From Owenia fusiformis (Eukaryota), in assembly GCA_903813345.2 (NCBI GenBank), contig CAIIXF020000001.1, forward strand, positions 21,080,001 to 21,144,000: 64,000 nucleotides of DNA, written 5' to 3'. Made by a program: the position numbers and the translations under genes. How positions within the stretch are numbered: the first letter of the stretch is position 1; the number at the start of each line of letters is the position of its first letter. The notes beneath the pieces were generated by a model that was not told the DNA's origin, made no database searches, and saw nothing but the letters and a program-made list of their open reading frames with translations. Shown in pieces: positions 26,029-46,846 of this stretch.

Positions 26029-28826
26029 TTATTATGTCCCCACCACATAGTGTGGGGCCATATCGTTGGTTTAGGCATGTCCGTCTGTCTGTACGTTCAA
26101 CAGTTTTCTCCAAAACCGCTACAGATATCATCTTAAAATTTACCGGGGTAACTTTTGGGTACATACAGATCTGGTAGAAAAAATTTCGACTTGATACATA
26201 CTTCTGTATCATCTTCAACTCACTTCATTCTAGATCTGATAAGATTTTGGACATGTTGGCTCAGTCATGGCAGCCATTTTGAATGTCTTAAGAAAAGTCA
26301 GTGAGTGATAATACTTGGTACCATATCAATATGGTGTTTTTGAGTTTTCATTATTTAGTAGCTTCATAAATAATTCCAGGTATCTTGCATTGTAAAAGCC
26401 CATGTCACTTTTGACATTAGTTGTATACGATGATTTTGTCAGAAAAAATTGGCAAAAATTTATATCTGCTTTTTTATTGGTGGCCATTTTTGGATTTTCT
26501 GTTGTAGAATTTTGTCTGTAAAGTCTTGTCAACATGTTTCCAGGCTAACCGTTTCATGGATCAATTTCAAGTTTTCAGGGATGATTCTTAGTGTGCAAAT
26601 CACGAATAGATTAGTTTTTGGGCATTCTGCATAAACGTTAAGGCGGCTATTTTGGATTTTTCTTCATAAAATCTTGTATGTCAAGTCTTGTGTACACATT
26701 TCCAGGCGAAACATTTTATGGATCGATTTCAAATTTTCAGGGATGATTCCTTGAATGAAACTCTTGACCTAATTATCCCATTGAATAAAGTTCGGAGGGA
26801 TATAGGGAACGCCTCCGTCTGTCTGTCCGTACGTACGTACGTCTGTCCATCCGTCCGTCCGGGCAATAACTCAAATACCATTGGCCCGATTTTGTTCATA
26901 TTTTGTACACATACGCCCTATGGGGGTAGAAGTTCTGCTCGAAAGCCGATTTTCAAAATGCCGCTCGTTTCAAAATGCCGCTCGTTCAAAATGGCGGCCA
27001 TTTTAGTGATGAATTTACAGTAATTTAGGTACAATATGTTAATGTTAACATATGTACAATATGTTAACTGTATTAGCAATGTGTTTTAAATGTAAAGAAG
27101 TTATATAAGACATAATAAATCTAAAAATGTAGATATTTAAGAAACATTTGGCAGCCATCTTGAAAAATGGCGGCTTTTACATGCTATTTTACGATTTTTG
27201 CTGTAACTTGAAAAGTAGTGGTGCGATTTTATTCATATTTGATATGTGAATACTCCTAAGCATAGCACACTTTTTATGACACTTTGGCTAGAAGCCGGCT
27301 ATTTTGAAAATAAACGCCATTTTTATGTGGGTTATTTTACGTTTTTTACTATAACTCACAAAGTTATAGAGCGATTTTGTTCATATTTGATATGTAAATA
27401 TTCATAAGCATGGCACACTGTTTTATGACACTTTGGCTAGAAGGTGGCCATTTTTACGTGTGTTATTTTACATTTTTTACTATAACTCAAAAAAAGTAAT
27501 AGAGCGATTTTGTTCATATTTGATATGTGAATACTCATAAGCATGGCACACTGTTTAATGAAACTTTGGCTAGAAGGTGGCCATTTTGAAAATGGTGGCC
27601 ATTTTTAAGCATGTGTTATTTTTACAAATTTTGCTATATCTGATAACGTAGTAGAAGGATTTTGTAAAAATGACAGCCTTGGCTGTTTGATGGGATTTGC
27701 TACGCTTTGCTGTTATCTAGTTAGTTTTTGAGCATTCTTGGTAAATGTTAAGGTGGCCATTTTGGATTTTCTGTCCTAAAATATTGTCTGTAAAGTCATG
27801 TCTACTACGCATTTCCAGGCGAATTGTTTGACGGATTGATTTCAAATTTTAAGGGATGATTCTTTATATGATAATCTCGAACTGATTAGCTTTTGGGCAT
27901 TCTTGGAAAATATCTGGGCCACCATTTTGCATTTTCATCCTAAAATTTGTCTGTAAAGTCTTGTGTACGTGTTTTAAGGCGAACTGTTTGGCAGATCAAT
28001 TTCAAATTTACAGGGATGATTCTTAGTATGCTAATCCCGAAGTGATCAGTTTTTGGGCATTTTGCGTAAATGTTAAGGTGACCATTATGGATTCTTCATC
28101 CTAAAATCTTGTATGTAAAGTCTTGTTTATGCCTTTCCAGGCGAAATGTTTTTTGTATCAATTTCAATTTTTTGTATGGAAATCTTGACCTGATTCGTTT
28201 TTGAGTATTCTGGGTAAATGTTAAGGTGGTCATTTTGGATTTTCCATCCTAGAATCTTGTCTGTAAAGTCTTGTCTATGCATTTCCAGGCGAACTGTTTG
28301 ATGGATCGATTTTAAATTTTCAGGGATGATACGTTGTATGCAGATCTCTGATTACTTTTTGGGCATTCTGGGTAACTGTTAAGGTCGCCATTATGGATTT
28401 TTCATCCTAAAATCTTGTCTGTAAAGTCTTGTCTACTCATTTCCGGATGTAGTTTTTTTACTGATCAATTTCAAATTTTCAGGGAAGATTCTTTGTATGA
28501 AAATCTTGACCTGATTAGTTTTTGAGCATTCTGGGTAAATGTTAATGTGGTCATTTTGGATTTTCCAACCAAAAGTCTTGTCTGTAAAGTCTTTTGAAGA
28601 ACTGTTTCATGGATTGATTTCAAATTTTCAGGGATGATTCTTAATATATGATAATCTTGAATTGATTAGCTTTCGGGCATTCTGGGGAAATATCAAGACT
28701 GTCATTTTGGATTTTTTATCTTAAAACTTTGTCTTTTTAACTGATTAAGGTTAGCCATTCAGGATGAAAAAAATCTATTGGGAATACCCATTGGTGGGGA
28801 CATGTTGTACACATTTGTGTCCTTGT
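26029..28826 (+). mobile_element. HINE family B copy 3 (about 160-bp repeats) hosting a nested HINE A
   Basis: subTIR atgtccccacca (26034-26045) / tggtggggacat (28792-28803), 5' stem-loop, gtccgtctgtct microsatellite, 3' hairpin acaca-tt-tgtgt. Borders are confirmed by the empty site in the duplicate copy. Confidence 0.85.
26773..27722 (+). mobile_element. HINE family A copy 2, nested
   Basis: Collinear with 819-1881; inserted at the TT of the host repeat gacct(g/a)att^agtttttgagc. Confidence 0.85.
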
Positions 28827-28837
28827 AAAAGTATGTA

Positions 28838-29404
28838 CAGGGTGTTTCATATGTATGCACCCCCTCTAAACTCATACATGTAGCATTACCACCCTATCAT
28901 GTTATATATCATTTTGTTTGTTATGAAAAGTTACATAAGATTGCAAAGTTTCACAATCAAGTGGTGTCGCTGGAAAAAGATATAGTGTGTACAATGTATC
29001 AAAGTATGGGTACATGGTCCTTTATGAGCATTATTGGACCCAGTTCTGTGATCTGTTCACTTTGTCCATTACCCATTTTTAATGAAAAAGGTGGAACCAT
29101 GGTCCCTGGCTTCCCTATTAGCCACTCTATGAATCCTGTCTATATATCTTTGTGAATAACTGTCACAGACATGTGGACTGAACACTGTCATGATGGTAAC
29201 AGCTAGAAATGTGCTATACGGAAACTAAATTTTTCCCGTACCTACATCCTTTGATACATTCTTTTTTTCAAGGACACCCCTGGATTCTGAAACTTTGCAA
29301 TCTTATGTAACTTTCAATTGAGAATCAAGTGATATATAACATGATATGGTGACAATGCTATATATATGATTTTAGAGGGGGTTGTATACATATGAAATAC
29401 TCTG
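28838..29404. mobile_element. Long-TIR Tc1/mariner-type MITE
   Basis: ta|cagggtgtttcatatgtatgca..ccccctctaaa ... tttagagggggttgtatacatatgaaatactctg|ta; imperfect arms longer than 100 bp. Confidence 0.8.
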
Positions 29405-30583
29405 TAGATACTGACCAAAATTTCTGATTAAATAAACATAGCCAGCTATCGGAAATTAGTGAGAGGGAAGTAGATGATTTCTGCTAGAAACTGAATTAAT
29501 CTGCAAGAATTATTTTTTCAACAGAAAGTGTATAAATAAAACACTAAATGAATAGGTACAAGAAGTGGTGCACTATGATTTTTTAACTGATTATCTTCGC
29601 AAGTGAGAGATCTATTTACAAAGGCGTGATATTACTAGTGTGCAAAAATCCTTTTGCTTTAAAATAAGTAGCCTATTGGACATCTACAGGACATGTTTTA
29701 AAAACTAATAGATGTCGTTATCATCAGTAAATGAATGCCATTACTGTTTGTAAATTTGTTCAAAATGTAATAGTGAGTAATGCGGGAGAGTAATTTTAGT
29801 TTACTCCCCTCCCCTTTCAATCACTGTTCGATTTTAATTTTTTTATAATATATTCTGACTAATTTTGATAAAACAGCAATGGCATTCATTTTGCGATGAT
29901 GATGTCATCTATTGTATTTAGAACTCATCTTGTAGACATCCACTGCTTGATTTATAACAAAACGATTGATTTCTGCATGTTGGTGATGTTGCGCCTTTTT
30001 TAAAATATATCTCACACCTTAGAATCTTATCAGCTCAAAGAACGTAAAACACCTTACTGATTTTACCATATTGTGTACCTATTCATTCAGCAATTTATTT
30101 GTAAACTTTCTGGTGAAAAGGTAAATCTTGCAGATTTGTTTAATTTTCTGGCATTGCCCCTTCAACCATTTTTGATTACTGGGTGTGATAAAGGGGAAAA
30201 TATACAAACTGACACAGATTTTTTTCTGTTTTTCAGTTGTCAAGGGAAGGGCATCTGAGGCATTGATGATCGCAAAGTTTATATGCATATACCTTGCGTT
30301 CGTAGTCTCGATCATATATGCATCTGATTTGCGATCTTTCCTACACTTGTTCGTAGCAATTCAGTCTGAACAGAACAACTGTACTTGAAATACTGAGTGT
30401 ACTTTGAGTATTTCCCGTAGAATTGTGAAGCAGTGCACAAATGACGGATTGTCAGAACAGAAAAATTATAGAATTGTGAACAGAATAAATGACGGATTGT
30501 CAGAACAGAAAAATTATAGAATTGTGAACAGAGATTTTGAGAACAAAAAAACTGATAGTGCATAAACATTGTAAATCACAAAT

Positions 30584-33500
30584 ATGAGGGGAAGTGCTGC
30601 CGAAATTTTTCAAAGTGACCTTAGAAACATAAATTTGAGCGAAAGTGCTGTCGAAATTTTTCAAAGTAATCTTAGAAACATGGATGAACTATGTAAAATC
30701 AATGAAAGGCCTACACCCTTGTGTCAAAATAAGTGTTTGCTCTCTGATACTGCATTCATATGTTCAAATAGTCATATGTATGAAAATCTTGCTGCCATAT
30801 CATACGCTACTGGTTCTCCACTTGCAAAACACAACATTGTTCTAACCGAACCTATACCTGATTCTGATATTCCTGATAAGGCGAGACTATTATTACCAGG
30901 TAAAATGTCTAAATCTTTGAAGAAGAGTCTCAGACGATTGACAAAAACAACCAATCAACCGAGTGTGAAATCCCATGGTACTACTGAAAGTGAAGTCAAT
31001 TGTGATTTACTGAAAAGCAATGTCAACATTTTGGATGATATCAAATCTCTCATTGATGAAAACAATACAGTCCTTGGATCAATCTCAAAAATGAACAAGT
31101 TTTATGTCAATAAGATTAGGGGTCAGGAAAAAGCCACCGCAAAGAAATTGAAATCAAACTTGACAAAATCATTGAAAAGACGACGTAATCAGGTAATGGT
31201 GCATTCTAGTATTAAGACCGTATCTAAACAATCCAGTCGTAAACTTGGAAGGAAAAATCACAAATTAATTTCAAAAAAATATAAACATGTGTATGCTGAA
31301 AACCTTACAGAACCAATGTCAAAGAAAGATGAAGTAAAACAACATCATGTCTTAGAGCAGTACTTATCAGACAATTCTTTACGTGTACCAACTATCAATA
31401 TGGAAACCAAGGATTCGAATGATGACACTGAAATTAAATATAAAAGCTTTTCAACAAGAAAAGAACTGAAAAGAGCAAAATATCTGAGTCGTGAATCAAA
31501 TTTTACCAATAAAACAACATCCGAAAACATGCAAGAGACAGAAAATGAGAATCCATACTTCTTAAAAGTAGTCGATGAAATGGAAGATATTTTTAACGAT
31601 GATTGCCCAAGAGTGCCACCCATGAAAGTTGTTTTTGAAAGTGATGAAGAACTTGAAAACACTGAAATTGCAGACTCTCAAACTGGTGGTTACAAGCCTG
31701 AACACCCTAGACATGAATTGAAACATAAATCAAGTGAGAATTCTGATGATATAACAATAATTCAGTCAAAGAAAAGTGGCCCTGTTGGAAATTTCACTCC
31801 TTTACAGAATATGGAAAAACTACAGTTGTGTAACCTTCACAATTTGAAATATTTCACCAAAACCAATGATCCTATACATATTGATGTTGAAATTCGAGAC
31901 ATGAAGCCTAAACAAGAATGCCTAAAGCGAATAACTGGTGATGGCAACTGTTTATTCAGAGCTATATCTTATTGCATCACGAATGATGAGTCCAATCACA
32001 GAGCGATACGGCAGAGAATAGTGGCACATAGAAATGATCAGAATTGCCAAGAATACATCCAGAAAACCAGAGGCTTGTCTCACCAAGAATTGGAATTACA
32101 TATTAAATCAACAAATATGAACAGATCTTCTGTGTGGGGAACTGACATCGAAATAGCTGCCGCCTGTCATTTATTCCAAATGAAAATAATAACCTATGAT
32201 AGAATGAACAGCTGGTCAGTATTTGGCAGAGAGTTTGAAAACAGATGTATATATCTAGATCACTCAACTCAAAACCATTATGATGTCATTACTGATGTGA
32301 TAGGCACAGAGATACTGAAAGTCCATGATATAGTACAGGGAACTATGGCCCAGAATGATGATGTATTTGAGGATATAGGTGGAGGCAAACAATGTTTCGC
32401 AAATTCTTTGACTTATTTAATGATGTCAGAAAGTGAGGCATATCGCCATATCGATGCTCCATTCATTGACGACGTTCTATACAGAGGCAATGTTCTTTAC
32501 ACAAAAATAATAACGGAAAATCCAACTCCCACTGGCTACCTCAGTATATATGATATTCCAGAAACTGTTAGTTGCAATGATAAGACATTCACATACAGAT
32601 CTACTCCAATACAAGGACAATTGGAATATTGGAACTACGATGAAGATGAACATGGGTTGACAATACACGAAGCTATAGACCAAGCTCTCACTGATCATGA
32701 CTCTTGTCTAGTAACATTCCTTAATACAACAATGTGTGTCACAAAAAGAAAGAAGGGAGACACCACCATGTATTATTCATTCGATCCTCACTGTAGAGAT
32801 AAACAGGGCAGAATTCATGAATTTGGAAAAGCAACTGTTCATAAGTCAAACGTTTTGGAAACCATCACCATGTTAATATGGAACACAGCTGAGTCCTTAG
32901 CAGAATGCATTCAACTCAGAGCAGATACAAAAAACGTTTTTATTGTTGACGCTATAATGCTTTATGAATGTAAAGCTGTGAAACAGTCTACTTTATCGAG
33001 CAAGATTAAATGTCGAAATGATCCAGGAAAGAATGAACCTGAAGAAATGAAGAAATTTGATTGCAAAGTTAAATCAAAATCGACAAAAAGGAAACTAAAT
33101 TTTTCTGAGAAGTTATCAAGTGAAAGTGATTTATTAGGAAAATGCAGTCAAAATGAGCAATTGGGTGAATCAGTGAAGAAAAGGCCATGTAAAGAAAATA
33201 TGAACATAAATCCAAAAATAATTAAAGAAGATGATGATGTGATGAATGTACCAGGTAGTGAGAAAGAAATTTCTATTGGATACTTTATTCCTCTCAACAA
33301 GACACAAAAAATAGAGATTGCTAAACAATTTAAATTGAAGCGTAGAGAAATGCGTGCTGATGCCAAACAAGATATCGAAATACTCCACTCTTTTCCGAAA
33401 CAGAAATCTTTGAAAAAAGTTAAAGATGATGGAGACTGCCTTTTTAGAGCCATTTCATATTCCATGACTAATACAGAAGATAATCACAAACAAATTAGGC

Positions 33501-36500
33501 AACTTATTGTTGATCATAAAAGTGATCCAATTTGCAAACAATACATCACTAAAACCCTTGGAATTACTACAGAAGAATTAGAGAATCAAATAATGAGCAA
33601 AACAATGCATTCAATAGGGACACAGATAGAAATAGTAGCTTGTTGCCATTTGTTTGAAGTCAAAATACTGACTTATAGCTATGATAGATGGACAGTTTAT
33701 GGCGATACATATAATAGACAACTTTACCTCAATCATTCTGGTGAGCTTCATTATGATGTAGTGACAAAAGTTCAAGAAAAACCTATGCAGGCAAGCAATG
33801 CAACAAAAATTCATACTGAAGAAAGAACCAGTTCTGACTCATCAACACCCGAAATATCTCAATTAAGTAGAATAATGGAATTAGGTAGTCTTGAAACTGG
33901 TTTTTACAAAAAAAGCTCAAATATTTCTCCAGTAGAACCTAAAACTCCAAAGTGTTCAAAGAAGGAATTAAGACGAAAAGCAAAGAATTTGAAAATAAAA
34001 CAGGAATATAATGAAAACAAAGATGTCTCTGAAAATAAAAAAGAACATCAAAGAATGACATACAAAGTATCAGAAGATTATAAAGAAAGTAAAAAAAAGG
34101 AAAGTAAAATAAATTATAAACAAACACCAGAAAAGCTTAAGAAATATATGAAAGAGTACCAAAGAAATAAATATGACACTAATCCTGAGTTCAAAGAGAA
34201 ACAGAAACAATGGATACGCACAGAATATGACATGAACCCTGAGTTCAGAAAAAACCAAAAAGAATCCATGAAAGAATATGAAAAGAGAAAGTATGAAACC
34301 AATCCTGAGTTCAAAGAGAAACAAAAGCAACGTATTCGCACAGAATATGACTTTAACCCTGAGTTCAAAGAGAAACAAAAACAACGTGTTCGCACAGAAT
34401 ATGACATTAACCCTGAGTTCAAAGAGAAACAAAAACAACGTGTTCGCACAGAATATGACATTAACCCTGAGTTCAGAGAAAACCAGAAAGATTATATGAA
34501 AGGATATGAAAAGAAAAGGTATGAAACCAATCCTGAGTTCAAAGAGAAACAAAAACAACGTGTTCGCACAGAATATGACATAAACCCTGAGTTTGTAGAA
34601 AGTCAGAAACAACATAGCAAGCAAGAGTATTTATCCAAGAGGCAGAACCTAAGTGAATTCAGCAATGCTCTTTTAAGATTCAGAAACATTATAAGTGATG
34701 GTCTGACATATGTATGTACAGTGTGTCAAAAACTTTTGTTCAGACACCAAGTTTTGAAATACAGTCAAGACAAACTGAGTGATTCAAAGAATATAAGAGA
34801 AAATGCAGCTAAATGTATTTCTGATACTTATGTGCATAAAAGAAACGATACTTGTCAACCAAATTGTTCATTATGTAATTCGCCAAAAAGTGAAACTTGG
34901 ATTTGCCACAATTGTTTGAGATATCTTAGAAAAGGGGAAATGCCATTGACTGCACACTGTAATAAAATGTCTGTTCCACATGCTCCAGAAGAACTTAAAT
35001 GTTTAAATGAATTGGAACAACATCTTATAGCATTACGTCTACCATTCATGAAAATTGTACATCTACCTAAAGGAGGTCAATTTGGAATGAAAGGTCCAGT
35101 AATAAGTGTAGCAAGTGACATTGTTGAAACTGTAACATCATTACCTCGGCCATTACATGATGAAGAACTCATTCAAGTTAAATTGAAGCGTAAACTCCAA
35201 TATGATGGTCACCATATGTATAAAACAGTATCTATAACAAAAGTTAAGAAAGCACTACTATACTTTGCTGACAATAACCCATTATACCGAACTGTTGCTA
35301 TATCAGATGACTTCCAAAAATGTGTTCCTGATTATTTACTTGATATTAAAGACAGGAATCAAATAACACCACTTAATGACAATGAACAATCAGAACATAT
35401 AACATATTCTAAATCAATATCAAAAATGAATGAAGATGCGGGTGAAGGAAGTAATAAAGACAGTGAAGAAATAGCCAATGAAAGTGTAGGTGTATTATTT
35501 GATACATGTCTCCAACCAGGTAACATTGGCCAAGAAATGTTAGATTTACATATGGATAGTATTTACTCAGTAGCACCGGGTGAAAACAAAAAACCTTTAC
35601 CAATTTTACAAGAACAAAATAATGAAGCAATGTCTTTCCCAACATTATTTCCTGATGGTACTAATACTTTTTCACAAGCACGAATAAAAGATATTAGACC
35701 TGCAAAGTATTTTGGTAATAGATTATTTTCTGCAGATTTGCGTTTCGGCCAAAATTCTCAATATATTTTCTATGCTCAGTATACCTCAGAGTTAAAAAAA
35801 ATTATTGACAATGTTAGTTTCAGTTTGAAAAAAGGCACTCGATCAAAAGCTGATGGTTCAGAACTTAAACTTGATGATATCTTAAACAGAGAAAAGTGTG
35901 AAGCTTTAACCAGAAAAAGTGTTGGATATCATTATCTACAACCGATCAGAGGAACACCACCATTTTGGCAAAGAGAACAAATGAACTTATTTGCTATGAT
36001 AAGACAATTAGGTTCACCGACTTGGTTCTGTTCATTTTCCTGCGCAGATTTACGATGGGATGAATTCATTCTAACAATTCTTAATCAGAATAATGACAAA
36101 CGGTTGCCAACAGAACTATCGAAGACTGAAAAGTGCAATCTTATCCGGGACAATCCTGTGACTGTTGCAAGACTGTTTGATTTCCGCTGGACAAGATTTC
36201 TCAAAGAAATAATTATGTCACCATCTAACCCAATTGGAAAAGTTAAGGATCTTTGGTGGCGATATGAATTTCAAATGCGTGGAAGCCCACATGTCCATTG
36301 TTTGTTCTGGATAGAAGATGCTCCTACTTATGAAAATGCTTCAAAGTCAGAAGTTGAGGAATTTATAGAGAAATATATATCCTGTGAATTACCAGATGAG
36401 GTTGATGATCCAGAATTAAACAACATTGTATCTGAAGTACAAACACACAGTAAAAACCATTCAAAAAGCTGTAAAAAGAAAGGTACAACCTGCAGATTTA

Positions 36501-39500
36501 ACTTTCCAAAGCCTCCATCATCACGAACATTCATTGCCAGTAATGACGACCCAGAAAACGACATGCCTTTGGAAAAAGCTAAAAATATTCTTGTTGCTTT
36601 GAAAGCTCAAATTTTGTCTGATGATTGCTCTGGATTATCATTGGACCAAATATTTGAAAAAGCATGGCCAGGTCTCACACAAGAAGAGTATCAAAAAGCA
36701 CAGAGTACACTCGCAAAAACAAAACAGGTTATTCTCAAGCGCAATGCAAAAGAAATGTGGATCAACAATTATAATGCAGACCTACTCAGAGCTTGGAATG
36801 CTAACATGGACATACAGCATCCAGTTGACATATTTGCAGTTGTCGTCTATATCATATCTTATGTATCCAAAGGTGAAACTGAAATGAGTAAAAATTTACA
36901 AGCTGCATGTGACGAAGCAAAGGAACAGAATGCAAGTGCATCTAAAGCCATGAAAGCAATTGGATATAGATATATGAAACATAGGGAAATAAGTGTGCAA
37001 GAAGCTGTGTACAGGGGAAGCAATATGAAAATAAAGCAAGCTTCGAGAACAGTTGTTTTTTTGCCTGTAGGAAATAATCCAATAAGAATGTCCTTACCAT
37101 TAAAAATATTGCGAATGAAAAAAACAGACAAATTGTTTTTACCGAATATCATTGACAAGTACTTGGGAAGACCAACCACTAATGATTTTAACAGCATGTG
37201 TTTAGCAGAATTTGCCTCTAAGTATTTGCTGTTGAACACTCAAAAGAAAACCCTGGAAACTGAAGATGGTGATGATCAGAATGAAATTTTAGATATTGAC
37301 ACTGGAGATAAAACAAATGAAAATGATGAATGTAAAATAATGAAACTCCAAGGTGAATTGGGATACATACAAAAGAGAACCAAACACTATGCTATTGTTC
37401 GTTATCCAAACTTTTCTAGAGAAAATAACTCTGAAGAATACTTCCATAGTATGCTACAATTATTCATGCCATACAGGAATGAGAATGAGTTCAAACCAAA
37501 TCAATGTGATTCGTATGAAAACTACCTTAGATCGTCAATATTACATAACAATAAAATGGTAAAAATAAGTGATATTGTTGACAAAAACAAATCCATTTAT
37601 GACATAACTGGTGAAAAATTGTCTGATGCTGTAGATAAACTCAATAATGAAGGAACATACGATGACGCATGGGCCAAAATAGCACCAGAACAAGAGCTTA
37701 ATCGCCATGAAAGCATACTTGATAAGGAACCTGATGAAATGATAGATGTGGCAGAAGGAGATATACCAGAGATAGATTATATTGAGAAAAAGGACAAGGT
37801 AAAAAGTGCCACATGTCTGGTAGAATTACAAACAAGTACTCGTAGCACATCCGATATTATGCCATTGTTAAGACAATTGAATTCAAAACAAAAGCAGATT
37901 TATTATATTGTTCGAAAATGGTGTTTAGAAAAAGCTAAATGCTGTTCAGAAGAATGCCTGGGAAAAAATCCTGATCCATTGTTTTTACATATATCTGGAT
38001 GTGCAGGAACTGGAAAGAGCCATTTGATCAAATGTATACATTATACATCAACAAGAATATTTCAAATTTATGGTGATCAAAAATTAAAAAATGCGATTTC
38101 AACTTTATTGACTGCACCTACAGGAACATCAGCATTTAATATCCATGGAAATACAGTCCATAGTGCTTTTCATATAGTAACAAAGAATAAGTCAAAAAGA
38201 GATGGAAAAGATGGTCATTTTAAGTATATACCTTTAACAGAGCAACTGATGGCAAAAGTTAGAGTACAACTTGAGAATCTACAAAACTTGGTTATTGATG
38301 AAATATCAATGGTATCAATTGAGTTATTGAAGTACGTAGATGGTCGTTTGGGTCAAATTAAAAGAACTGATGATAAATTTGGTAATACATCCATCTTAGC
38401 TTTTGGAGACTTTATGCAGTTACCACCAGTTATACAAAAGATACTCCTTAAGGAATACCCTCATATATTTAATCCATTCGATTTATTTAAGAAAATTGAA
38501 TTAACTGAAATTATGCGCCAAAAGGATGACATTGAGTACGCTGAAGTTTTAAGACGAATAAGAGTCTTAAAGAAAACAGAAAAACTGAGTGAGAAGGATG
38601 ACCAATTTTTTAGAAACATTGCACAAAAGAAACCACCAGCAAATTGTTTGAGGGCCTATTCAACAAGAAAACTTAGAGATGGATACAATACATCACGACT
38701 CCAAGAGCTTTGTAAAGCAAATAATAAAGTGATACATCATATAAAAGCTGAAGACTACTTTAAAAGAAATGGACAAACTTGGGAAAAAACTGATAGAGCT
38801 CCCCGATCTTTATCCGAAACATTTGATCCAGAAATAACTCTGTGCGAAGGGGCAAATGTTCTGTTGATTAAAAATGTAGCAGTAGCTGATGGCCTTGTGA
38901 ATGGAGTGTTTGGAATTGTCACACATATTGAATACAAAAACCCACAGGACAACATGCCTCAAGCTGTGTGGGTAAAGTTTAATGATTCAAGAGTAGGACA
39001 AAAATACAAATATGAGCATCCTTCAAGTAAATATCCAGAATCAATTCGAATAGAACCAGCTGAAGATCAAGTAGGGCAGTTTTTAAGACGCCAAATTCCA
39101 CTTATATTATCATACGCTTGCACTATTCATAAACTTCAAGGTGCAACTTGTCAAGAATTGACAGTGTCAATGAAAGGTATGTTTAAAGGTGGGATGGCAT
39201 ATGTAGCATTTAGTAGAGTAACTTCAGCCAAAGGACTCTATATCCTTGATTACGACCCTGCCTTAATTTATTGCGATGCAGACATGATAGCTAATCTTGA
39301 TAGAATGCCTATGTATGACATCCAACCAAATCCCAAGCCTAATACAAATGACCTAACAATTGCATTCCACAACATACAAGGTTTGGTTGCACATATTGAG
39401 GATGCTAAGGTGAACACTGAGTTGCTGTCAAGTGATATAATTTGCTTATGTGAAACTTGGCTATATAGAGATGACACAAGTCCAGTATTATTCTTACCAC

Positions 39501-40015
39501 ATTTTGAGAAGCCTTATATAAAGAATAGAACAAACATATCCACACACAATGGAGGTATAGCAATTTACCATAACAATGAGACGTACCATGTAAATATTGA
39601 AAGTGTAATTGAAAAAACTGAGCCTGAAATTGAACATGTAGTTACATATGTGGAAAATTTATGTGTTGTAACAATCTACAAACAACCAACATGCAATGTT
39701 TCTGAATTTGTTTGTGCACTTGAAAATCTCATTCATTGTGTAACACAAAGGACTAAAAGAATCATTTTAATTGGTGATTTCAATGAAGATCTCCATAATG
39801 ACAAGCCACATCCTATACATCACAATCTAGTGGTCATAAACAGTTTTTCTCAACTGATATGTGAATCAACAACAGAGCAGTTGACATGCATTGACCATGT
39901 TTATGTAAAGGGTATACGTCCTAGCAAATTGAAAGCTTTTGTGGAACCTACTTATTATAGTTATCATGAAATGCTGAAGGTTATTGTGTTAAATGAAAAA
40001 GAGAATTGGGATTAG
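30584..40015 (+). CDS. Helentron (Helitron2-type) polyprotein, 3143 aa: OTU, tegument-like DUB, OTU, NPEF repeats, Zn finger, HUH Rep, PIF1 helicase, APE endonuclease
   Basis: Rep motifs PTWFCSFSCAD, YEFQMRGSPHVH, YIISYVSK. PIF1 motifs GCAGTGKS, APTGTSAFNI, IDEISMV, GDFMQLPPV, IMRQ, ACTIHKLQG, AYVAFSRV. EEP motifs HNIQGL, LCETWL, GDFN, IDHVY, SYH. Two GNCLFRA/GDCLFRA..HYDV OTU domains. QG..Q..GKQC..FDPH peptidase C76-like domain. Confidence 0.95.
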   Translation: MRGSAAEIFQSDLRNINLSESAVEIFQSNLRNMDELCKINERPTPLCQNKCLLSDTAFICSNSHMYENLAAISYATGSPLAKHNIVLTEPIPDSDIPDKARLLLPGKMSKSLKKSLRRLTKTTNQPSVKSHGTTESEVNCDLLKSNVNILDDIKSLIDENNTVLGSISKMNKFYVNKIRGQEKATAKKLKSNLTKSLKRRRNQVMVHSSIKTVSKQSSRKLGRKNHKLISKKYKHVYAENLTEPMSKKDEVKQHHVLEQYLSDNSLRVPTINMETKDSNDDTEIKYKSFSTRKELKRAKYLSRESNFTNKTTSENMQETENENPYFLKVVDEMEDIFNDDCPRVPPMKVVFESDEELENTEIADSQTGGYKPEHPRHELKHKSSENSDDITIIQSKKSGPVGNFTPLQNMEKLQLCNLHNLKYFTKTNDPIHIDVEIRDMKPKQECLKRITGDGNCLFRAISYCITNDESNHRAIRQRIVAHRNDQNCQEYIQKTRGLSHQELELHIKSTNMNRSSVWGTDIEIAAACHLFQMKIITYDRMNSWSVFGREFENRCIYLDHSTQNHYDVITDVIGTEILKVHDIVQGTMAQNDDVFEDIGGGKQCFANSLTYLMMSESEAYRHIDAPFIDDVLYRGNVLYTKIITENPTPTGYLSIYDIPETVSCNDKTFTYRSTPIQGQLEYWNYDEDEHGLTIHEAIDQALTDHDSCLVTFLNTTMCVTKRKKGDTTMYYSFDPHCRDKQGRIHEFGKATVHKSNVLETITMLIWNTAESLAECIQLRADTKNVFIVDAIMLYECKAVKQSTLSSKIKCRNDPGKNEPEEMKKFDCKVKSKSTKRKLNFSEKLSSESDLLGKCSQNEQLGESVKKRPCKENMNINPKIIKEDDDVMNVPGSEKEISIGYFIPLNKTQKIEIAKQFKLKRREMRADAKQDIEILHSFPKQKSLKKVKDDGDCLFRAISYSMTNTEDNHKQIRQLIVDHKSDPICKQYITKTLGITTEELENQIMSKTMHSIGTQIEIVACCHLFEVKILTYSYDRWTVYGDTYNRQLYLNHSGELHYDVVTKVQEKPMQASNATKIHTEERTSSDSSTPEISQLSRIMELGSLETGFYKKSSNISPVEPKTPKCSKKELRRKAKNLKIKQEYNENKDVSENKKEHQRMTYKVSEDYKESKKKESKINYKQTPEKLKKYMKEYQRNKYDTNPEFKEKQKQWIRTEYDMNPEFRKNQKESMKEYEKRKYETNPEFKEKQKQRIRTEYDFNPEFKEKQKQRVRTEYDINPEFKEKQKQRVRTEYDINPEFRENQKDYMKGYEKKRYETNPEFKEKQKQRVRTEYDINPEFVESQKQHSKQEYLSKRQNLSEFSNALLRFRNIISDGLTYVCTVCQKLLFRHQVLKYSQDKLSDSKNIRENAAKCISDTYVHKRNDTCQPNCSLCNSPKSETWICHNCLRYLRKGEMPLTAHCNKMSVPHAPEELKCLNELEQHLIALRLPFMKIVHLPKGGQFGMKGPVISVASDIVETVTSLPRPLHDEELIQVKLKRKLQYDGHHMYKTVSITKVKKALLYFADNNPLYRTVAISDDFQKCVPDYLLDIKDRNQITPLNDNEQSEHITYSKSISKMNEDAGEGSNKDSEEIANESVGVLFDTCLQPGNIGQEMLDLHMDSIYSVAPGENKKPLPILQEQNNEAMSFPTLFPDGTNTFSQARIKDIRPAKYFGNRLFSADLRFGQNSQYIFYAQYTSELKKIIDNVSFSLKKGTRSKADGSELKLDDILNREKCEALTRKSVGYHYLQPIRGTPPFWQREQMNLFAMIRQLGSPTWFCSFSCADLRWDEFILTILNQNNDKRLPTELSKTEKCNLIRDNPVTVARLFDFRWTRFLKEIIMSPSNPIGKVKDLWWRYEFQMRGSPHVHCLFWIEDAPTYENASKSEVEEFIEKYISCELPDEVDDPELNNIVSEVQTHSKNHSKSCKKKGTTCRFNFPKPPSSRTFIASNDDPENDMPLEKAKNILVALKAQILSDDCSGLSLDQIFEKAWPGLTQEEYQKAQSTLAKTKQVILKRNAKEMWINNYNADLLRAWNANMDIQHPVDIFAVVVYIISYVSKGETEMSKNLQAACDEAKEQNASASKAMKAIGYRYMKHREISVQEAVYRGSNMKIKQASRTVVFLPVGNNPIRMSLPLKILRMKKTDKLFLPNIIDKYLGRPTTNDFNSMCLAEFASKYLLLNTQKKTLETEDGDDQNEILDIDTGDKTNENDECKIMKLQGELGYIQKRTKHYAIVRYPNFSRENNSEEYFHSMLQLFMPYRNENEFKPNQCDSYENYLRSSILHNNKMVKISDIVDKNKSIYDITGEKLSDAVDKLNNEGTYDDAWAKIAPEQELNRHESILDKEPDEMIDVAEGDIPEIDYIEKKDKVKSATCLVELQTSTRSTSDIMPLLRQLNSKQKQIYYIVRKWCLEKAKCCSEECLGKNPDPLFLHISGCAGTGKSHLIKCIHYTSTRIFQIYGDQKLKNAISTLLTAPTGTSAFNIHGNTVHSAFHIVTKNKSKRDGKDGHFKYIPLTEQLMAKVRVQLENLQNLVIDEISMVSIELLKYVDGRLGQIKRTDDKFGNTSILAFGDFMQLPPVIQKILLKEYPHIFNPFDLFKKIELTEIMRQKDDIEYAEVLRRIRVLKKTEKLSEKDDQFFRNIAQKKPPANCLRAYSTRKLRDGYNTSRLQELCKANNKVIHHIKAEDYFKRNGQTWEKTDRAPRSLSETFDPEITLCEGANVLLIKNVAVADGLVNGVFGIVTHIEYKNPQDNMPQAVWVKFNDSRVGQKYKYEHPSSKYPESIRIEPAEDQVGQFLRRQIPLILSYACTIHKLQGATCQELTVSMKGMFKGGMAYVAFSRVTSAKGLYILDYDPALIYCDADMIANLDRMPMYDIQPNPKPNTNDLTIAFHNIQGLVAHIEDAKVNTELLSSDIICLCETWLYRDDTSPVLFLPHFEKPYIKNRTNISTHNGGIAIYHNNETYHVNIESVIEKTEPEIEHVVTYVENLCVVTIYKQPTCNVSEFVCALENLIHCVTQRTKRIILIGDFNEDLHNDKPHPIHHNLVVINSFSQLICESTTEQLTCIDHVYVKGIRPSKLKAFVEPTYYSYHEMLKVIVLNEKENWD
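34140..34630 (+). repeat. Coding tandem repeat with 54-bp and 66-bp units (NPEF motif x8)
   Basis: NPEFKEKQKQRVRTEYDI (18 aa) and NPEFRxNQKxxMKxYEKxxYET (22 aa) units. Confidence 0.9.
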
Positions 40016-40429
40016 TGGTAGTTATTATCACATACCTTAGCTGAACACTTAAGACTAAGATAATTGTTTTTATTGGTGAATTTGATGAAGATATCGATAA
40101 TGACCATCATCCTCTTGATCACAATAATGTATGATTTCAAGAGACAATGCTCTCATCAAATGTGAGAATACTTGACTTCAGATATCAATAACTATGTACA
40201 GCAGTCCGTTAAGCCAACAATATATGAATAAAGATAGTACAATGGTATACTGCTTGACGTCATCAGTGACATAGAAACAAATTGTCAAATTGCAGAATCA
40301 ATCACTAAGTAAGACAATTAAACAGACTATTTAACAAACTGTGGAAATTTGAAAAAATGTATAAACAAACAACTTACCAATGATAGACATGTAAATAGTG
40401 CATTGATATACAGTGTTACCTCATTATTA

Positions 40430-43400
40430 ACACTTGATTGCAGAAGCAATCACTAAGTAAAATGATGAAACACTCCATTGGAAATTAAACATAGTATTAA
40501 GATACACATTACCAAGGACAGACATATATATATATAGTGCCTTGATATACTGCAAGATATCATATGTTTCATATAAACAACTGACTGCAGAATCAATCAC
40601 TACATAAAATGATAAAACATTCCATTTAGCCAACTTTGGAAATTAAACATTGTATTAACATACATATTACCAACGACAGACATATATATAGTGCCCTGAT
40701 ATACTGCAAGATTAAATTTGTTTCATATAAACAACTGACTGCAGAATCAATCACTACATAAATGATAAAACACTCCATTTAGCCAACTTTGGAAATTGAA
40801 GATTGTATTAAGATACACATTACTAATGACAGACATACATATATAGTGCCCTGATATACTGCAAGGTAGCATTTGTTTCATATGAACAACTGACTGCAGA
40901 ATCAATCACTACAAAAATGATATAACACTCCATCGAGCCAACTTTGGAAATTAAACATTGTATTAACATACATATTACCAATAACAGACATATACTTGTA
41001 TATATAGTGCCCTGATATACTGTAAGATAAAATTTGTTTCATATAAACAACTGACTGCAGAATCAATCACTTCATAAAATGATAAAACACTCCATTTAGC
41101 CAACTTTGGAAATTAAACATTGTATTAACATACATATTACCAATGACAGACATATATATAGTGCCCTGATATACTGTAACATAAAATGTGTTTCATATAA
41201 ACAACTGACTGCAGAATCAATCACTAAGTGAAATGATAAAACACTCCATTTGGCAAACTTTGGAAATTAAACATTGTATTAAGATACACATTACCAATTA
41301 CAGACATATATAAAGTGCCCTGATATACTGCAAGATAAAATTTGTTTCATATAAACAACTGACTGCAGAATGAAGCATTAAGTAAAATGATAAAACACTC
41401 CATTTAGCCAACTTTGGAGATTAAACATTGTATTAACATACATATTTCCAATGACAGACATATATATAGTGCCCTGATATACTGCAAGATAAAATTTGTT
41501 TCATATAAACAACTGACTGCAGAATCAATCACTACACAAAATGATAAAACACTCCATTTAGCCAACTTTGGAAATTAAACATTGTATTAACATACATAAT
41601 ACCAATGACAGACATATATATAGTGCCCTGATATACTGCAAGATTAAATTTGTTTCATATAAACAACTGACTGCAGAGTCAATCACTAAGTGAAATGATA
41701 AAACACTCCATTTAGCCAACTTTGGAGATTAAACATTGTATTAACATACATATTACCTATGACAGACATATTTATAGTGCCCTGATATACTGCAAGAAAA
41801 AATTTGTTTCATATAAACAATTGACTGCAGAATCAATCATTAAGTGAAATGATAAAACACTCCATTTGGCAAACTTTGGAAATTAAACATTGTATTAAGA
41901 TAAACATTACAAATTACAGACATATATAAAGTGCATTGATATACTGCAAGATAAAATTTGTTTCATATAAACAACTGACTGCAGAATCAAGCATTAAGTA
42001 AAATGATAAAACACTCCATTTAGCCAACTTTGGAAATTTAACATTGTATTAACATTCACATTACCAATGACAGACATATATATAGTGCGCTTGTATACTG
42101 CAAGATAACATGTGTTTCACATAAACATCTGAATGTAGAATCAATCACTAAGTAAAATGATGAAACAGTCCATTTAGTCAACTTTGGAAAATTAACAATT
42201 TATTAACATACACATTACCAATGACAGACATTTAAATAGTGCCCTGATAAACTGCAAGATAATTTGTTTCATATAAACAACTGACTGCAGAATCAGTCAC
42301 TAAGTAAAATGATAAAACACTCCATTAAGCCAACTTTGGAAATTAATCATTGTATTAACATACACATTGCCAATGACAGACATATATATAGTGCGCTTGT
42401 ATACTGCAAGATAACATGTGTTTCACATAAACATCTGAATGCAGAATCAATCACTAAGTAAAATGATAAAACACTCCATTTAGCCAACTTTGGAAATTAA
42501 ACATTTATGACGATACACATTACCAATGACAGACATATATATATATATAGTGTCCTTATATACTGCAAGATAACATTTGTTTCATATAAACAACTGACTG
42601 CAGAATCAATCACTAAGTAAAATGATAAAACACTCCATTTAACCAACTTTGGAAATTAAACATTGCATTAACATACACATTACCAATGACAGAGATATTT
42701 ATAGTGCCTTGATAATCTGCCAAATAAAATTTGTTTCATATAAAAAACTGACTGCAGCATCAATCACTAAGTAGAATAATAAAACACGCCATTTAGCAAA
42801 CTTTGGAAATTATGACAGACATATCTATGTAGTGCCCTGATATACTCCAAGATGAAATTTGTTTCATATAATTAAACAACTGACTGCAGAATCAATCACT
42901 GATAAATGATAAAACATTCCATTCAGCAAACTTTGGAAATAAAACATTGTATTAAGGTACACATTATCAATGACAGACATATACGACTCGTATATAGTGC
43001 CCTGATATACTGCAAGATAAAATGTGTTTGATATAAACAACTGACTGCAGAATCAGTCACTAAGTAAAATGATAAAACACTCCATTTAGCCAACTTTGGA
43101 CATAAAACATTTATTAAGATATACATTACCAATCACAGACATATATATATATATATACTGCAAGATAACATGTGTTTCATATAAACAACTGACTGCAGAA
43201 TCAATCACTGAGTAAAATGATAAAACACTCCATTCAGCCAACTTTGGACATAAAACATTTATTAAGATATACATTACCAATGACAGACATATATATAGTA
43301 CTCTGATATACTGCAAGATAAAATTTGTTTCATATAAACAGCTGACTACAGAATCAATCACTAAGTAAAATGACAAAGCAGCCAATTTATCCATATTTGG

Positions 43401-43545
43401 AAATGAAACATTGTATTCACATACACATAATCAATGACAGATATATATATAGTGCCCTGATATACTGCAAGATAAAATGTGTTTCATATAAACAACTAAC
43501 TGCAGAATCAGTCACTAAGTAAAATGATAAAACACTCCATTACCA
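40430..43545. repeat. Satellite array 1, 154-bp unit, about 20 copies
   Basis: Anchor ctgcagaat at 41055, 41209, 41363, 41517 (period 154); decayed copies extend to about 40230 and 44170. Confidence 0.95.
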
Positions 43546-44399
43546 AGGAGAGACAAATGAAAAGTGGGCTGATATTAGACAGAAATAACTGACATGACTG
43601 CAGGATCAGTCACTATGTTGACCACTGATAAATATGCAATGACATACTGCGCAAAACGTGATGTGTAACATAGAAACACTTTACTGGTTAATTACTAAGT
43701 AAAAAACAGTTTGTTTACCCAACTTTGATACTTAACAATGTGTCAACATACACATTACCGATGATAGACATATAAATATGAAACTAGTGTACTGCTTGAC
43801 ATCATTTGTTAGATATAAAACAATTGATCATAGAATTAATCACTAAGTAAAACAATATATAAACAGACAACTTACCCATAAAAGACATATAAATAGTGCA
43901 TTGGTACACTGCTTGTCATTACCTGTCAGAAAAACACTTGATTGCAGAATCAGGTACCATGTGAAACATTAGAAGTGTTTATTTAACCAATTTTAGAAAT
44001 TGAACAATGTGAACATATAAATAGTGTACTTATATACTGTTTGACATCACAGAAAGAATGTATGACACCATATGTTACATAGTCAATTTAGCCAACTGTG
44101 GATATTATACAATATATTAACATATAACTTACTAATAATTGTATATTTTTCCAACTTTGGAAATTAAACAATGCATAATCTGTTGGCCAAGCCAATGTCA
44201 AGTTATATCATGCTCATTGTTCTATATTTTTATAAAGATTACATTAACAAAATGCAACAACAACCGAAGTATAATGCAAATATAAAAGAGATGATATTGA
44301 TATTCAATCACTAAAGGAAACAATAAAATAATCCATGTTCAGTGATGGGATTACTAATTGTCATTTGTATTTAATTGCAGACTTTATATAATATTATAG

Positions 44400-45850
44400 T
44401 AACTCTGTATGACACTGGTGTGTTGTACTCTGCAGGTAGAATTGATACTTCATGGTTTGTTACCATGTGACAATTGTTGGTTGTTTTCAATTGTAGCTTT
44501 GTAAATAATATAATATATTATACTCTAAAGCTACAATTGTTACTTCTGTGTGACAACTGTATGACACAAGTGTGTTATACTCTGGAGATACAAATGTTAC
44601 TTCATGGTCTGTTACCATGTGCCAGTTCTTGCTTGTTTTCAATTGTGGCTTTGTAAATAATATAATATATTATACTCTAAAGCTACAATTGTTACTTCTG
44701 TGTTACAGCTGTATGACACAAGTGTGTGATACTCTGCATGTACAACTGTTACTTCAGGGTTTGTTACCTTGTGACAGTTGGTGGTTGTTTCAATTGTAGC
44801 TTTGTAAATAATATAATATATTATACTCCAAAGCTACAATTGTTACTTCTGTGTGACAACTGTATGACGCAAGTGCGTTATACTCTGCAGGTACAACTGT
44901 TACTTCATGGTCTGTTACCATGTGCCAGTTGTTGCTTGTTTTCAATTGTAGCTTTGTAAATAATATAATATATTATACTCTAAAGCTACAATTGTTACTT
45001 CTGTGTGACAACTGTATGACACAAGTGTGTTATACTCTGCAGATACAAATGTTACTTCATGGTCTGTTACCATGTACTAGTTCCTGCTTGTTTTCAATTG
45101 TGGCTTTGTAAATAATATAATATACTATTATACTCTAAAGCTACAATTGTTACTTCTATGTGACAGCTGTATGACACAAGTGTGTGATACTCTGCATGTA
45201 CAACTGTTACTTCAGGGTTTGTTACCTTGTGATCATTGTTGGTTGTTTTCAATTGTAGCTTTGTAAATGACATAATATATTATACTCTGCAGCTACAATT
45301 GTTACTTCTGTGTGACAACTGTATGGCACAAGTGCGTTCTACTCTGCCGGTACAACTGTTACTTCATGGTTTGTTATCATGTGATAATTGTTGGTTGTTT
45401 TCAATTGTAACTTTGTAATGACATAATATATTATACTCTGCAGCTACAATTGTTATTTCTGTGTGACAACTGTATGACACAAGTGCATTCTACTCTGCAT
45501 GTACAACTGTTACTTCATGGTTTGTTACCATGTGATAATTGTTGGTTGTTTTCAATTGTAGCTTCGTAAATATAATATTTTATACTCTTAAGCTACAATT
45601 GTTACTTCTGTATGACAACTTTATGACACAAGTGTCTTATTGTCTGCAAGTATAACTGTTACTTTATGGTTTGTTACCATATGACACTTGTTAGTTGTTT
45701 GCAATTATAACATTGTAAATAATATATTATATTCTAAAGCTACAATTGTTACTTCTGTGTGACAACTGTATGACACAAGTGTGTTATAATCTGGAGGTTC
45801 AACTGTTACTTCATGGTTTGTTACCATATGACGGTTGTTGGTTGGCCTCA
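44400..45850. repeat. Satellite array 2, 152-bp unit, about 9-10 copies, decaying to about 47750
   Basis: Anchor gctacaattg at 44530, 44682, 44833, 44985. Confidence 0.93.
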
Positions 45851-46505
45851 ATTGCAGCTTTTTAAATTATATAATATACCTAACCCTGGTGCTACAATTG
45901 TTACTTTATGTTTTTGTACCATATGACAACTGTTGGTGGGACAACTTCATTTGTGACTTAGTATGGTATATGTATGTTATACTCTGAACTTACAATTATG
46001 TTAGTTCGTGGTCTTGTACCATTTGACAACTGTTAATTAGTTGTCTTAAACTGTGACTTAATTTAATATAATAGTAACTGTGTATGACACGTAAGTGTGT
46101 TATACTTTTATTATACTATAATGTCATGGTTTGTTACCATGTGACAAATGTTGATTGTCTTCAATTGCAGCTTTGTATAGTATAAGTTTGTTTTACCCTA
46201 AATTTGCAGTTGATTGTTCTTTGTCTTGATTATATGACAGCTGTTGGTTAGTTTTCTTAAATAGTGACATTATATGATACAATGGTAATTTTGTATTACA
46301 CAAATATATTATACACTGAAGGTACAATTGTTACTCCATGGTTTACTGTGTGACAACATCATGTTGTCTTCAATTGCAGCTTTGTGTGATATATGGTATA
46401 CTTTGAAGTTACAATTATTTTATTCGGATTCTGATTTCGTGTAAGGCTGTTAATCAGTCATGGTATTTTAAAATGTAAAAAACTGATGATTTGTTGTCTT
46501 AAAAC

Positions 46506-46846
46506 CTAGCCATACACTTGCCGGACAAACTCCGACATCAAGGGAGCTATAGAGTAAAATATTTTTAGCAGAAAACCTTGGACAATTTCAGCTTCTCCAG
46601 GGTTGTCCACCGAACATTATCCGTTTTGTCCAAGTTTGTCCGTTTTTTCTCTGAGTTAGTTCATTTATGTCCGTTGGAAAGAATTAACTTGTCAATTCTG
46701 TTATCCGGACAAATTCAAAAGCATTAATTCACATAATGATGATTTGACTATTTTTTGACAAAACAGGACATCATCGAACAAAACAGGACAATCTTGGACA
46801 GATAAAACGGACAAAGTCTTAGAAAGTCCGCCAAGTGTATGGCTAG
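46506..46846. mobile_element. MITE (PIF/Harbinger-like) in the decayed tail of array 2
   Basis: 21-bp TIR ctagccatacacttgccggac / gtccgccaagtgtatggctag, one mismatch. Confidence 0.75.

Follow-up and report, generated by a model that had tools for sequence, protein, structure and literature searches.

An apparently intact Helentron of Owenia fusiformis with predicted deubiquitinase domains in the order OTU-VTD-OTU

The DNA analysed here, called the window below, is a stretch of 64,000 nucleotides of the forward strand of Owenia fusiformis contig CAIIXF020000001.1 (assembly GCA_903813345.2, positions 21,080,001 to 21,144,000). On its plus strand positions 30575..40015 form one stop-free frame of 3146 codons, in which the first in-frame ATG, at 30584, gives a product of 3143 amino acids. 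None of the other stop-free frames in the window is longer than 308 codons, and at the base composition of the window (33% G+C) the chance of a random frame staying open for 3146 codons is about 1e-106. Pfam profiles place in the product, in this order, OTU, Herpes_teg_N (the VTD or peptidase C76 domain), OTU, DUF6570, Helitron_like_N, PIF1 and AP endonuclease domains. A Rep (HUH) domain and a PIF1-type helicase are thus found in one protein, with an AP endonuclease of the Exo_endo_phos type fused at its C-terminus; in the parts of Thomas et al. 2014 (PMC4067079) available to us, Rep-helicase with a C-terminal AP endonuclease is the trait that defines Helentrons. We regard it as very probable that the locus is an apparently intact autonomous Helentron (an HLE2 rolling-circle transposon) of an animal genome, which carries a cassette of predicted deubiquitinase (DUB) domains and is probably still expressed. 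A first-pass annotation of this DNA had described such an OTU-VTD-OTU cassette fused to a Helentron transposase, and the fusion in frame to Rep, helicase and endonuclease is borne out by the Pfam matches and by the single stop-free frame.

The single open reading frame (ORF) of the element, at 30584..40015 on the plus strand, begins with an N-terminal region (residues 35-387; 30677..31735) that belongs to no Pfam family and is collinear with two other Owenia fusiformis proteins; the N-terminal 377 residues gave no usable match in the ESM Atlas. Near the end of this region lies the motif SQTGGY (residues 368-373; 31676..31693), a candidate GG cleavage site or mimic of a ubiquitin-like tail, after which three relatives have a basic GKKRK stretch. 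The cassette itself consists of a pre-OTU segment with the first OTU domain, OTU1 (residues 388-575; 31736..32299), the VTD (residues 576-799; 32300..32971), a linker rich in lysine and serine that is weakly conserved relative to the Owenia proteins (residues 800-884; 32972..33226), and a pre-OTU segment with the second OTU domain, OTU2 (residues 885-1066; 33227..33772). Downstream follow DUF6570 (residues 1453-1579; 34931..35311; 73.4 bits in Pfam), the Helitron_like_N or Rep domain (residues 1715-1910; 35717..36304; 109.4 bits), the PIF1-type helicase with its 2B domain (residues 2469-2784; 37979..38926; 61.9 bits, with the PIF1 match at 2469-2652) and the C-terminal AP endonuclease (residues 2932-3115; 39368..39919; 35.6 bits against a cut-off of 24.5), all on the plus strand. 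Between the cassette and DUF6570 the frame runs through 54-nucleotide (18-residue) tandem repeats (34170..34613), about eight copies of the type NPEF..KEKQKQR.RTEYD; comparable lysine-rich repeats stand in the same place in one of the Owenia proteins (P0033, by alignment) and in the relatives P0035 and P0182 (by eye). A Pfam scan of seven other ORFs of the window, of the N-terminal region and of the repeat region recovered nothing relevant.

All three protease domains score above the gathering score of their own Pfam family. For the middle domain, Herpes_teg_N (PF04843) matches residues 593-744 with 34.7 bits in the whole protein, and with 40.8 bits when the domain is scanned alone, against a cut-off of 25. 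The motifs by which the first-pass annotation had recognised it lie where it had placed them: QGTMAQ from residue 588, GKQC from residue 604 with Cys607 at nucleotide 32393, and FDPH from residue 736 at nucleotide 32780. The columns of Gln588, Gln593, Cys607, Asp737 and His739 are invariant in all 23 aligned VTD domains, the catalytic roles assigned to these residues being those of the literature. Since a phmmer search of the PDB sequences with the single domain sequence found no match at E<=1, a profile was needed, and one was built from the window domain and 25 relatives (alignment A1). This profile recovered, with E 1.1e-27, 8add_A, the Helentron VTD of zebrafish whose deposited name is 'ATP-dependent DNA helicase', as well as large tegument proteins of herpesviruses (E 4.6e-11 and 5.4e-10), M48 of murine cytomegalovirus (E 1.8e-7) and the bacterial VTD 8adb (E 7.8e-5); the OTU matches in the same search stem from the flanks of full-length relatives and not from the VTD of the window. 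An AlphaFold model of the domain has a mean predicted local distance difference test score (pLDDT) of 91.4 and a predicted template modelling score (pTM) of 0.90. Foldseek aligns the model with 8add (E 9e-15, template modelling (TM) score 0.79/0.84) and with the M48 structure 2j7q (TM 0.71/0.69), 8adc and 8adb match too, and each of the six matches at E<=0.001 is a VTD or an M48 entry. Failure to model as a C76 fold had been named beforehand as what would overturn the assignment of this domain; because the model matches VTD and M48 structures, the assignment is not refuted, and Pfam score, profile match and modelled fold agree on a C76/VTD domain.

The whole-protein Pfam scan finds OTU in two stretches (E 1.5e-17), and scanned alone OTU1 and OTU2 reach 43.9 and 37.1 bits against the PF02338 cut-off of 23.3. 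Their motifs, too, are at the places first given for them: GDGNCLFRA starts at residue 455, with Cys459 at nucleotide 31949, and HYDV at residue 568 (nucleotide 32276); in OTU2, DDGDCLFRA starts at residue 951, with Cys955 at nucleotide 33437, and the second HYDV at residue 1059 (nucleotide 33749). All 36 OTU domains of a first alignment share the aspartate and the cysteine (Asp456/Cys459 and Asp952/Cys955), and 26 of them show the catalytic histidine (His568 in OTU1, His1059 in OTU2), the other ten having been shortened by extraction; in a larger alignment 181, 175 and 177 of 184 relatives keep the Asp, Cys and His columns. Among the 23 columns conserved to 75% or more in these 184 relatives, OTU1 agrees with the consensus at 22, and it keeps every OTU hallmark examined in its sequence. 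OTU2 agrees at 20 of the 23, and two of its three departures adjoin the active site: the position before the catalytic cysteine is Asp954, where 177 of 184 relatives and OTU1 have asparagine, and a deletion of three residues removes a tryptophan that 167 of 184 relatives and OTU1 keep. The first-pass statement that all three catalytic sets are intact accordingly holds for the catalytic residues themselves, but leaves aside the tryptophan lost from OTU2 and its aspartate in place of asparagine. In an alignment of the whole cassette (A2) the OTU domains of relatives fell on OTU1 and left OTU2 without depth, and OTU2 was folded from a separate alignment (A3). The resulting model (pLDDT 89.2, pTM 0.85) matches 61 PDB entries at E<=0.001, at the top of which stand nairovirus OTUs, OTUD3, OTUD5, OTUD1 and OTUD2. 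Two OTU domains therefore flank the VTD, as separate Pfam scores, catalytic columns and alignment show for both and the fold model for OTU2. Domain identity and catalytic residues are established for the entire cassette, and for the VTD and OTU2 the predicted models add the fold.

The two OTU domains are copies of each other. Residues 388-575 and 885-1066 align over 188 columns with 44% identity (E 8e-49), and the match includes some 60 residues that precede each OTU core, which confirms the internal duplication with a similar pre-OTU segment that had been proposed at first. The pre-OTU F-x-P-L...LC pattern is also present in the consensus of the relatives, and in the OTU2 model this segment is folded with high confidence (pLDDT 96-98 over model residues 21-40). 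Taken together, the pattern in the relatives and the confident folding indicate that the pre-OTU segment is more than a scar of the duplication, namely an N-terminal extension integral to this OTU subfamily, as judged from alignment and model.

To place the cassette among its relatives we used a collection of 227 related proteins, in which its closest relatives, among the matches listed, are two proteins of the annelid Owenia fusiformis, CAH1803005.1 (P0033) and CAH1803287.1 (P0034). Both are collinear with residues 35-862 of the window protein at 47-49% identity. Like it they have the N-terminal region, SQTGGY, and an OTU domain abutting a VTD, and P0033 continues into the lysine-rich repeats; unlike it they have no second OTU, and their gene models no Rep or helicase part, so that they may be truncated or decayed copies. 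In a FastTree phylogeny of 186 OTU domains OTU2 is sister to OTU1 together with both Owenia OTUs (Shimodaira-Hasegawa-like support 0.84), and this group falls within a clade of seven that includes P0035, P0036 and P0038 (support 0.96); those members of the clade that have a VTD all have it in the order OTU-VTD. A tree of the VTD domains agrees with this grouping, joining the window with Owenia (0.90) and with P0035 and P0182 (1.0). An origin of the cassette as a truncated [VTD-OTU]x2 array was considered and rejected, no VTD remnant being found in residues 1-440 with filters off; the sole extra match of the VTD profile in the protein is weak (E 0.007) and lies inside the helicase. On the sequence evidence, the simplest reading is that the element stems from a lineage with the order OTU-VTD and gained its second OTU when OTU1, N-terminal extension included, was copied to a place behind the VTD. 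The OTU2 copy would then either be older than the split from the Owenia families, having been lost there or missed by their gene models, or be younger and fast-evolving, two options that the tree alone does not separate.

The 227 proteins came from a word-indexed search among long proteins (31), from an exhaustive HMMER search of whose 1444 matches the best 150 were taken (147 of them new) and from a search of shorter proteins (61), with two cluster members added. Domains were placed with hidden Markov models derived from these same matches, split pieces were merged, and a domain was counted as complete at 70% or more coverage of its model; the cassette itself was the query, which favours matches with several domains, and many entries are truncated or predicted gene models. 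With the window included, complete domains were arranged in the 228 proteins as OTU (116), VTD-OTU (65), OTU-OTU (19), OTU-VTD (8), VTD (7), VTD-OTU-VTD-OTU (2), VTD-VTD-OTU-OTU (2, of the same 90% cluster), VTD-OTU-OTU (2), VTD-VTD (2), OTU-OTU-OTU (1), VTD-VTD-VTD (1) and OTU-VTD-OTU (1, the window), while two proteins had no complete domain. Eight of the 227 other proteins have three or four complete DUB domains, and six of these eight have both families. The first-pass annotation had thought three DUBs of two families in one chain to be undescribed. Their order is indeed found only in the window (1 of 228), but neither the number nor the combination is new, given the eight relatives with three or four DUBs and the published chains with both families.

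Indeed, in the sections of Erven et al. 2022 (PMC9741609) that were accessible, most non-viral VTD homologues lie in ORFs of Helitrons with an AP endonuclease, that is, Helentrons, 121 VTD-containing Helitrons carry OTU domains too, and of the zebrafish elements DrT1 has two VTDs and DrT2 one VTD and one OTU. HELIANO (PMC11417382) treats OTU and Herpes_teg_N as stable Helentron domains, with Herpes_teg_N in the same ORF as RepHel, and the accessible parts of Thomas et al. 2014 (PMC4067079) give OTU as a recurrent Helentron-associated domain. As Erven et al. and HELIANO both report the two families in Helentron ORFs, DUBs of two families in one Helentron chain are already in print, and the architecture of the window is a lineage-specific variant of this published kind with an extra OTU. 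We found no description of the order OTU-VTD-OTU in the literature, although the supplement of PMC9741609 may still tabulate architectures.

DrT1 and DrT2 (structure 8ADD), like the window, have a VTD DUB in one ORF with Rep, helicase and AP endonuclease, sometimes with an OTU, and share the Gln, Cys, Asp and His residues of the VTD, but the structural alignment of 8ADD with the window VTD has only 16% identity, and the arrangements described in the accessible text of PMC9741609 are VTD-VTD or one VTD with one OTU, as opposed to the two OTUs here. Three or four complete DUBs upstream of DUF6570 and Rep-Hel in one chain, as in the window, are seen in the crinoid Antedon mediterranea (P0002) and the pipefish Nerophis lumbriciformis (XP_061819389.1), both VTD-OTU-VTD-OTU, and in the fishes Odontesthes (P0048; VTD-VTD-OTU-OTU) and Engraulis (P0050 and P0184; VTD-OTU-OTU). 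These proteins differ from the window in domain order, belong to the VTD-OTU lineage and are 23-28% identical to it; their amplifications are independent of that in the window, the duplicated unit in Antedon and Nerophis being the VTD-OTU pair. The large tegument DUB of herpesviruses (UL36 / M48 / BPLF1; C76) shares fold and catalytic residues with the window VTD, yet is the N-terminal domain of a virion protein without accompanying OTU domains. The best matches of the OTU2 model are the viral OTUs of Qalyub virus and Crimean-Congo haemorrhagic fever virus, OTUD3, OTUD5 and OTUD1 (probability 1.00, TM 0.41-0.65). Like the viral OTUs, OTU2 is predicted to pack an N-terminal extension against its core (pLDDT 96-98), but it is only 18-25% identical to the nairovirus and cellular OTUs and lacks the conserved tryptophan.

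We next turn to signs that the element is live. In three raw stranded RNA-seq runs labelled as the same species (X21, X22 and X23), of each of which 6-12% was read, 101, 66 and 36 reads (203 in total) fell on 29500-40300 at 95% identity or more, covering 24, 27 and 13 of 30 bins. All reads on the ORF have the first mate on the minus strand, which under the usual dUTP convention means sense (+) RNA; the sole plus-oriented signal, of 0.11x, comes from X23 and is confined to one bin upstream of the ORF. None of the 203 reads showed a splice joint. The cassette bins (31666-33831) are covered to a depth of 0.8-4.2x in X21, 0.3-3.0x in X22 and 0-1.05x in X23, and 42 of the 101 reads of X21 have identities of 95-99% rather than 99% or more, so that paralogous copies may contribute. 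Among 40 listed base differences between the window and these runs, 31 lie in the ORF, of which 13 are synonymous, 18 nonsynonymous and none a stop. The nonsynonymous share is below the 80% expected under uniform mutation (binomial P 0.004), a comparison that assumes such uniformity, draws on a small sample and leaves 15 further differences outside those listed. The ORF thus shows signs of purifying selection. Contigs of run X1, whose run type is a guess, have a depth of about 20-40, which is not to be read as copy number or expression.

At the flanks, no convincing terminal or subterminal inverted repeats were found between 30100-30584 and 40016-48000; the best exact matches there are 10-11 nucleotides long, about the chance level, and one of them falls within a satellite monomer. 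Helentrons start with Ts and have TT as their insertion site. One X1 contig matches the window from 30220 on and differs before it, and the window there is a run of Ts (TTTTTTCTG...), so that the break at 30219/30220 could be the 5' boundary of the element family, a hint from a single contig. Downstream, 213 bp after the stop codon, begins a tandem array of roughly 25 monomers of about 154 bp (40228..44200), which probably belongs to the element. A second array, of roughly ten 152-bp monomers (44333-45993), also lies directly downstream of the ORF region; a change in the sign of the AT skew near 44000 suggests that it may be inverted or foreign. Tandem repeats are described in Helentrons and HINEs in the accessible parts of PMC4067079 and PMC7492417. 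Around the start codon there are 48-nucleotide direct repeats in 2.3 copies just upstream (30418-30532) and a 51-nucleotide duplication at the very start of the coding frame (30580-30681), which may represent promoter or leader structure. Further upstream, a 32-nucleotide stretch (30080-30111) is shared with abundant transcripts of other loci, and in each of the three RNA runs 7-11 reads match it alone, with unrelated sequence on both sides. The upstream flank (26445-28734 and 28830-30146) is rich in repeats, including 148-158-bp tandem repeats, and contains nested inverted repeats (120-nucleotide arms at 28859-28978 and 29263-29382; 82-nucleotide arms at 29488-29569 and 30065-30146) that look like insertions of the miniature inverted-repeat transposable element type.

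As to function, homology with the zebrafish Helentron VTDs makes it most likely that the VTD is an isopeptidase active on ubiquitin and perhaps on NEDD8: in the accessible text of Erven et al. (PMC9741609) three of these react with ubiquitin probes, two also with NEDD8 probes, and they prefer K48 and K63 chains, two also K11. By the same homology, OTU1, VTD and OTU2 would be cysteine isopeptidases whose task is to take ubiquitin, and possibly NEDD8, off the transposase itself or off host factors, the OTU domains adding further linkage specificities. Such removal would protect the proteins of transposition against degradation or restriction that depends on ubiquitin, a hypothesis that Erven et al. 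also put forward in the same text. Several points weigh against a live element with three working DUBs. The RNA depth is low (about 0-4x), paralogous reads may be among it, and its sense orientation follows from a convention; the small variant sample has the limits given above. Mobility we infer from coding capacity alone, and the activity of the three domains and their biological target from their relatives, while transposon OTU domains have never been assayed according to the accessible text of PMC9741609. OTU2, without two near-invariant residues by its active site, may be weakened or re-specialised, and from P0033 and P0034 either the second OTU is dispensable in these Owenia proteins or their gene models are incomplete.

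This last pair of observations leads to the view that only OTU1 and the VTD work, and that OTU2 is a degenerating or re-purposed copy, either a ubiquitin-binding pseudo-enzyme or a protease for another ubiquitin-like modifier. The loss of the tryptophan by deletion and the change to Asp954 are what such a copy might show, OTU2 has the longest branch of its clade, and the nearest relatives do without it. We nevertheless hold this to be rather improbable, as OTU2 retains Asp-Cys-His and 20 of the 23 conserved columns, has a confident OTU-fold model and stays in frame within an ORF that has signs of purifying selection. Far less likely still is that the locus is a Helentron-derived, domesticated host gene of the kind known from the VTD genes of insects and nematodes. 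Many domesticated VTD genes are reported in the accessible text of PMC9741609, and the search of 30100-30584 against 40016-48000 gave no convincing terminal inverted repeats; but Rep, PIF1 and AP endonuclease are all retained in frame, which speaks against domestication and contrasts with the insect VTD copies outside recognizable transposon context, which that text considers likely to lack enzymatic activity. No intron interrupts the 9.4 kb of coding sequence, the RNA reads contain no splice joint, and the 154-bp array after the ORF is typical of Helentrons (PMC4067079, in the parts available).

Alternatively, the protease domains might mainly process the polyprotein in cis, especially by cutting behind the Gly-Gly of SQTGGY (Gly372/Tyr373), which would free an N-terminal protein of about 370 residues from the DUB-RepHel chain. 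The motif could be a cis-cleavage site, to judge by its conservation: [S/T]QTGGY stands 72-81 residues upstream of the OTU in six of six proteins of the OTU-VTD lineage, despite flanks that otherwise cannot be aligned. Cleavage behind a C-terminal GG is typical of DUB-type proteases, and viral OTU and papain-like proteases likewise cleave behind GG. SUMO precursors have Q-T-G-G at their ends, and a Gly-Gly with Q-T before it resembles the processed C-termini of ubiquitin-like proteins. Yet no ubiquitin-like fold precedes SQTGGY: Pfam has no match there, and in P0035 and P0182 the distance from the upstream 2A-like site to QTGG is just about 23 residues. Moreover, most DUBs need the body of ubiquitin for binding. 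A polyprotein style of expression would also fit the 2A-like D[V/I]ExNPGP peptides found upstream of the DUBs in seven of the 228 proteins (P0035 and P0182 of this lineage, and P0084, P0087, P0101, P0207 and P0209), peptides that are known from non-LTR retrotransposons. Cleavage of Rep, helicase and endonuclease subunits by OTU was suggested by Thomas et al. 2014 (PMC4067079, accessible parts), but no conserved GG lies between the DUB cassette, Rep, helicase and endonuclease, and since the other four GG dipeptides are inside folded domains there is no sign of cleavage sites between these units. On balance we consider cis-processing as the main role to be unlikely. A broader and equally speculative reading is that Helentrons repeatedly and independently amplify and reshuffle DUBs in an arms race with the host, driven by ubiquitin-based host restriction, that in this lineage one of the proteases cleaves the polyprotein behind QTGG as a mimic of a ubiquitin-like tail, and that OTU2, its active-site surroundings altered, has moved to another linkage or ubiquitin-like modifier. 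Putative examples of such module reshuffling are the OTU duplication here, the VTD-OTU pair in the crinoid and pipefish proteins, the triple VTD and the triple OTU. We prefer the reading of an apparently intact, probably expressed Helentron whose cassette would act by removing ubiquitin.

This reading adds little in principle, because VTD and OTU DUBs in Helentron transposases are published and VTDs among them have been assayed. A clean, uninterrupted and apparently transcribed element with both DUB families and two diverged OTUs is, however, a convenient natural construct for asking what role transposon OTUs have, whether the linkage preferences of duplicated DUBs diverge and whether the conserved GG is a mark of self-cleavage. 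More generally, the copy number and order of DUBs vary widely among the Helentrons of fish, echinoderms, molluscs and annelids, and these varied arrays support the idea that deubiquitination matters to Helentrons.

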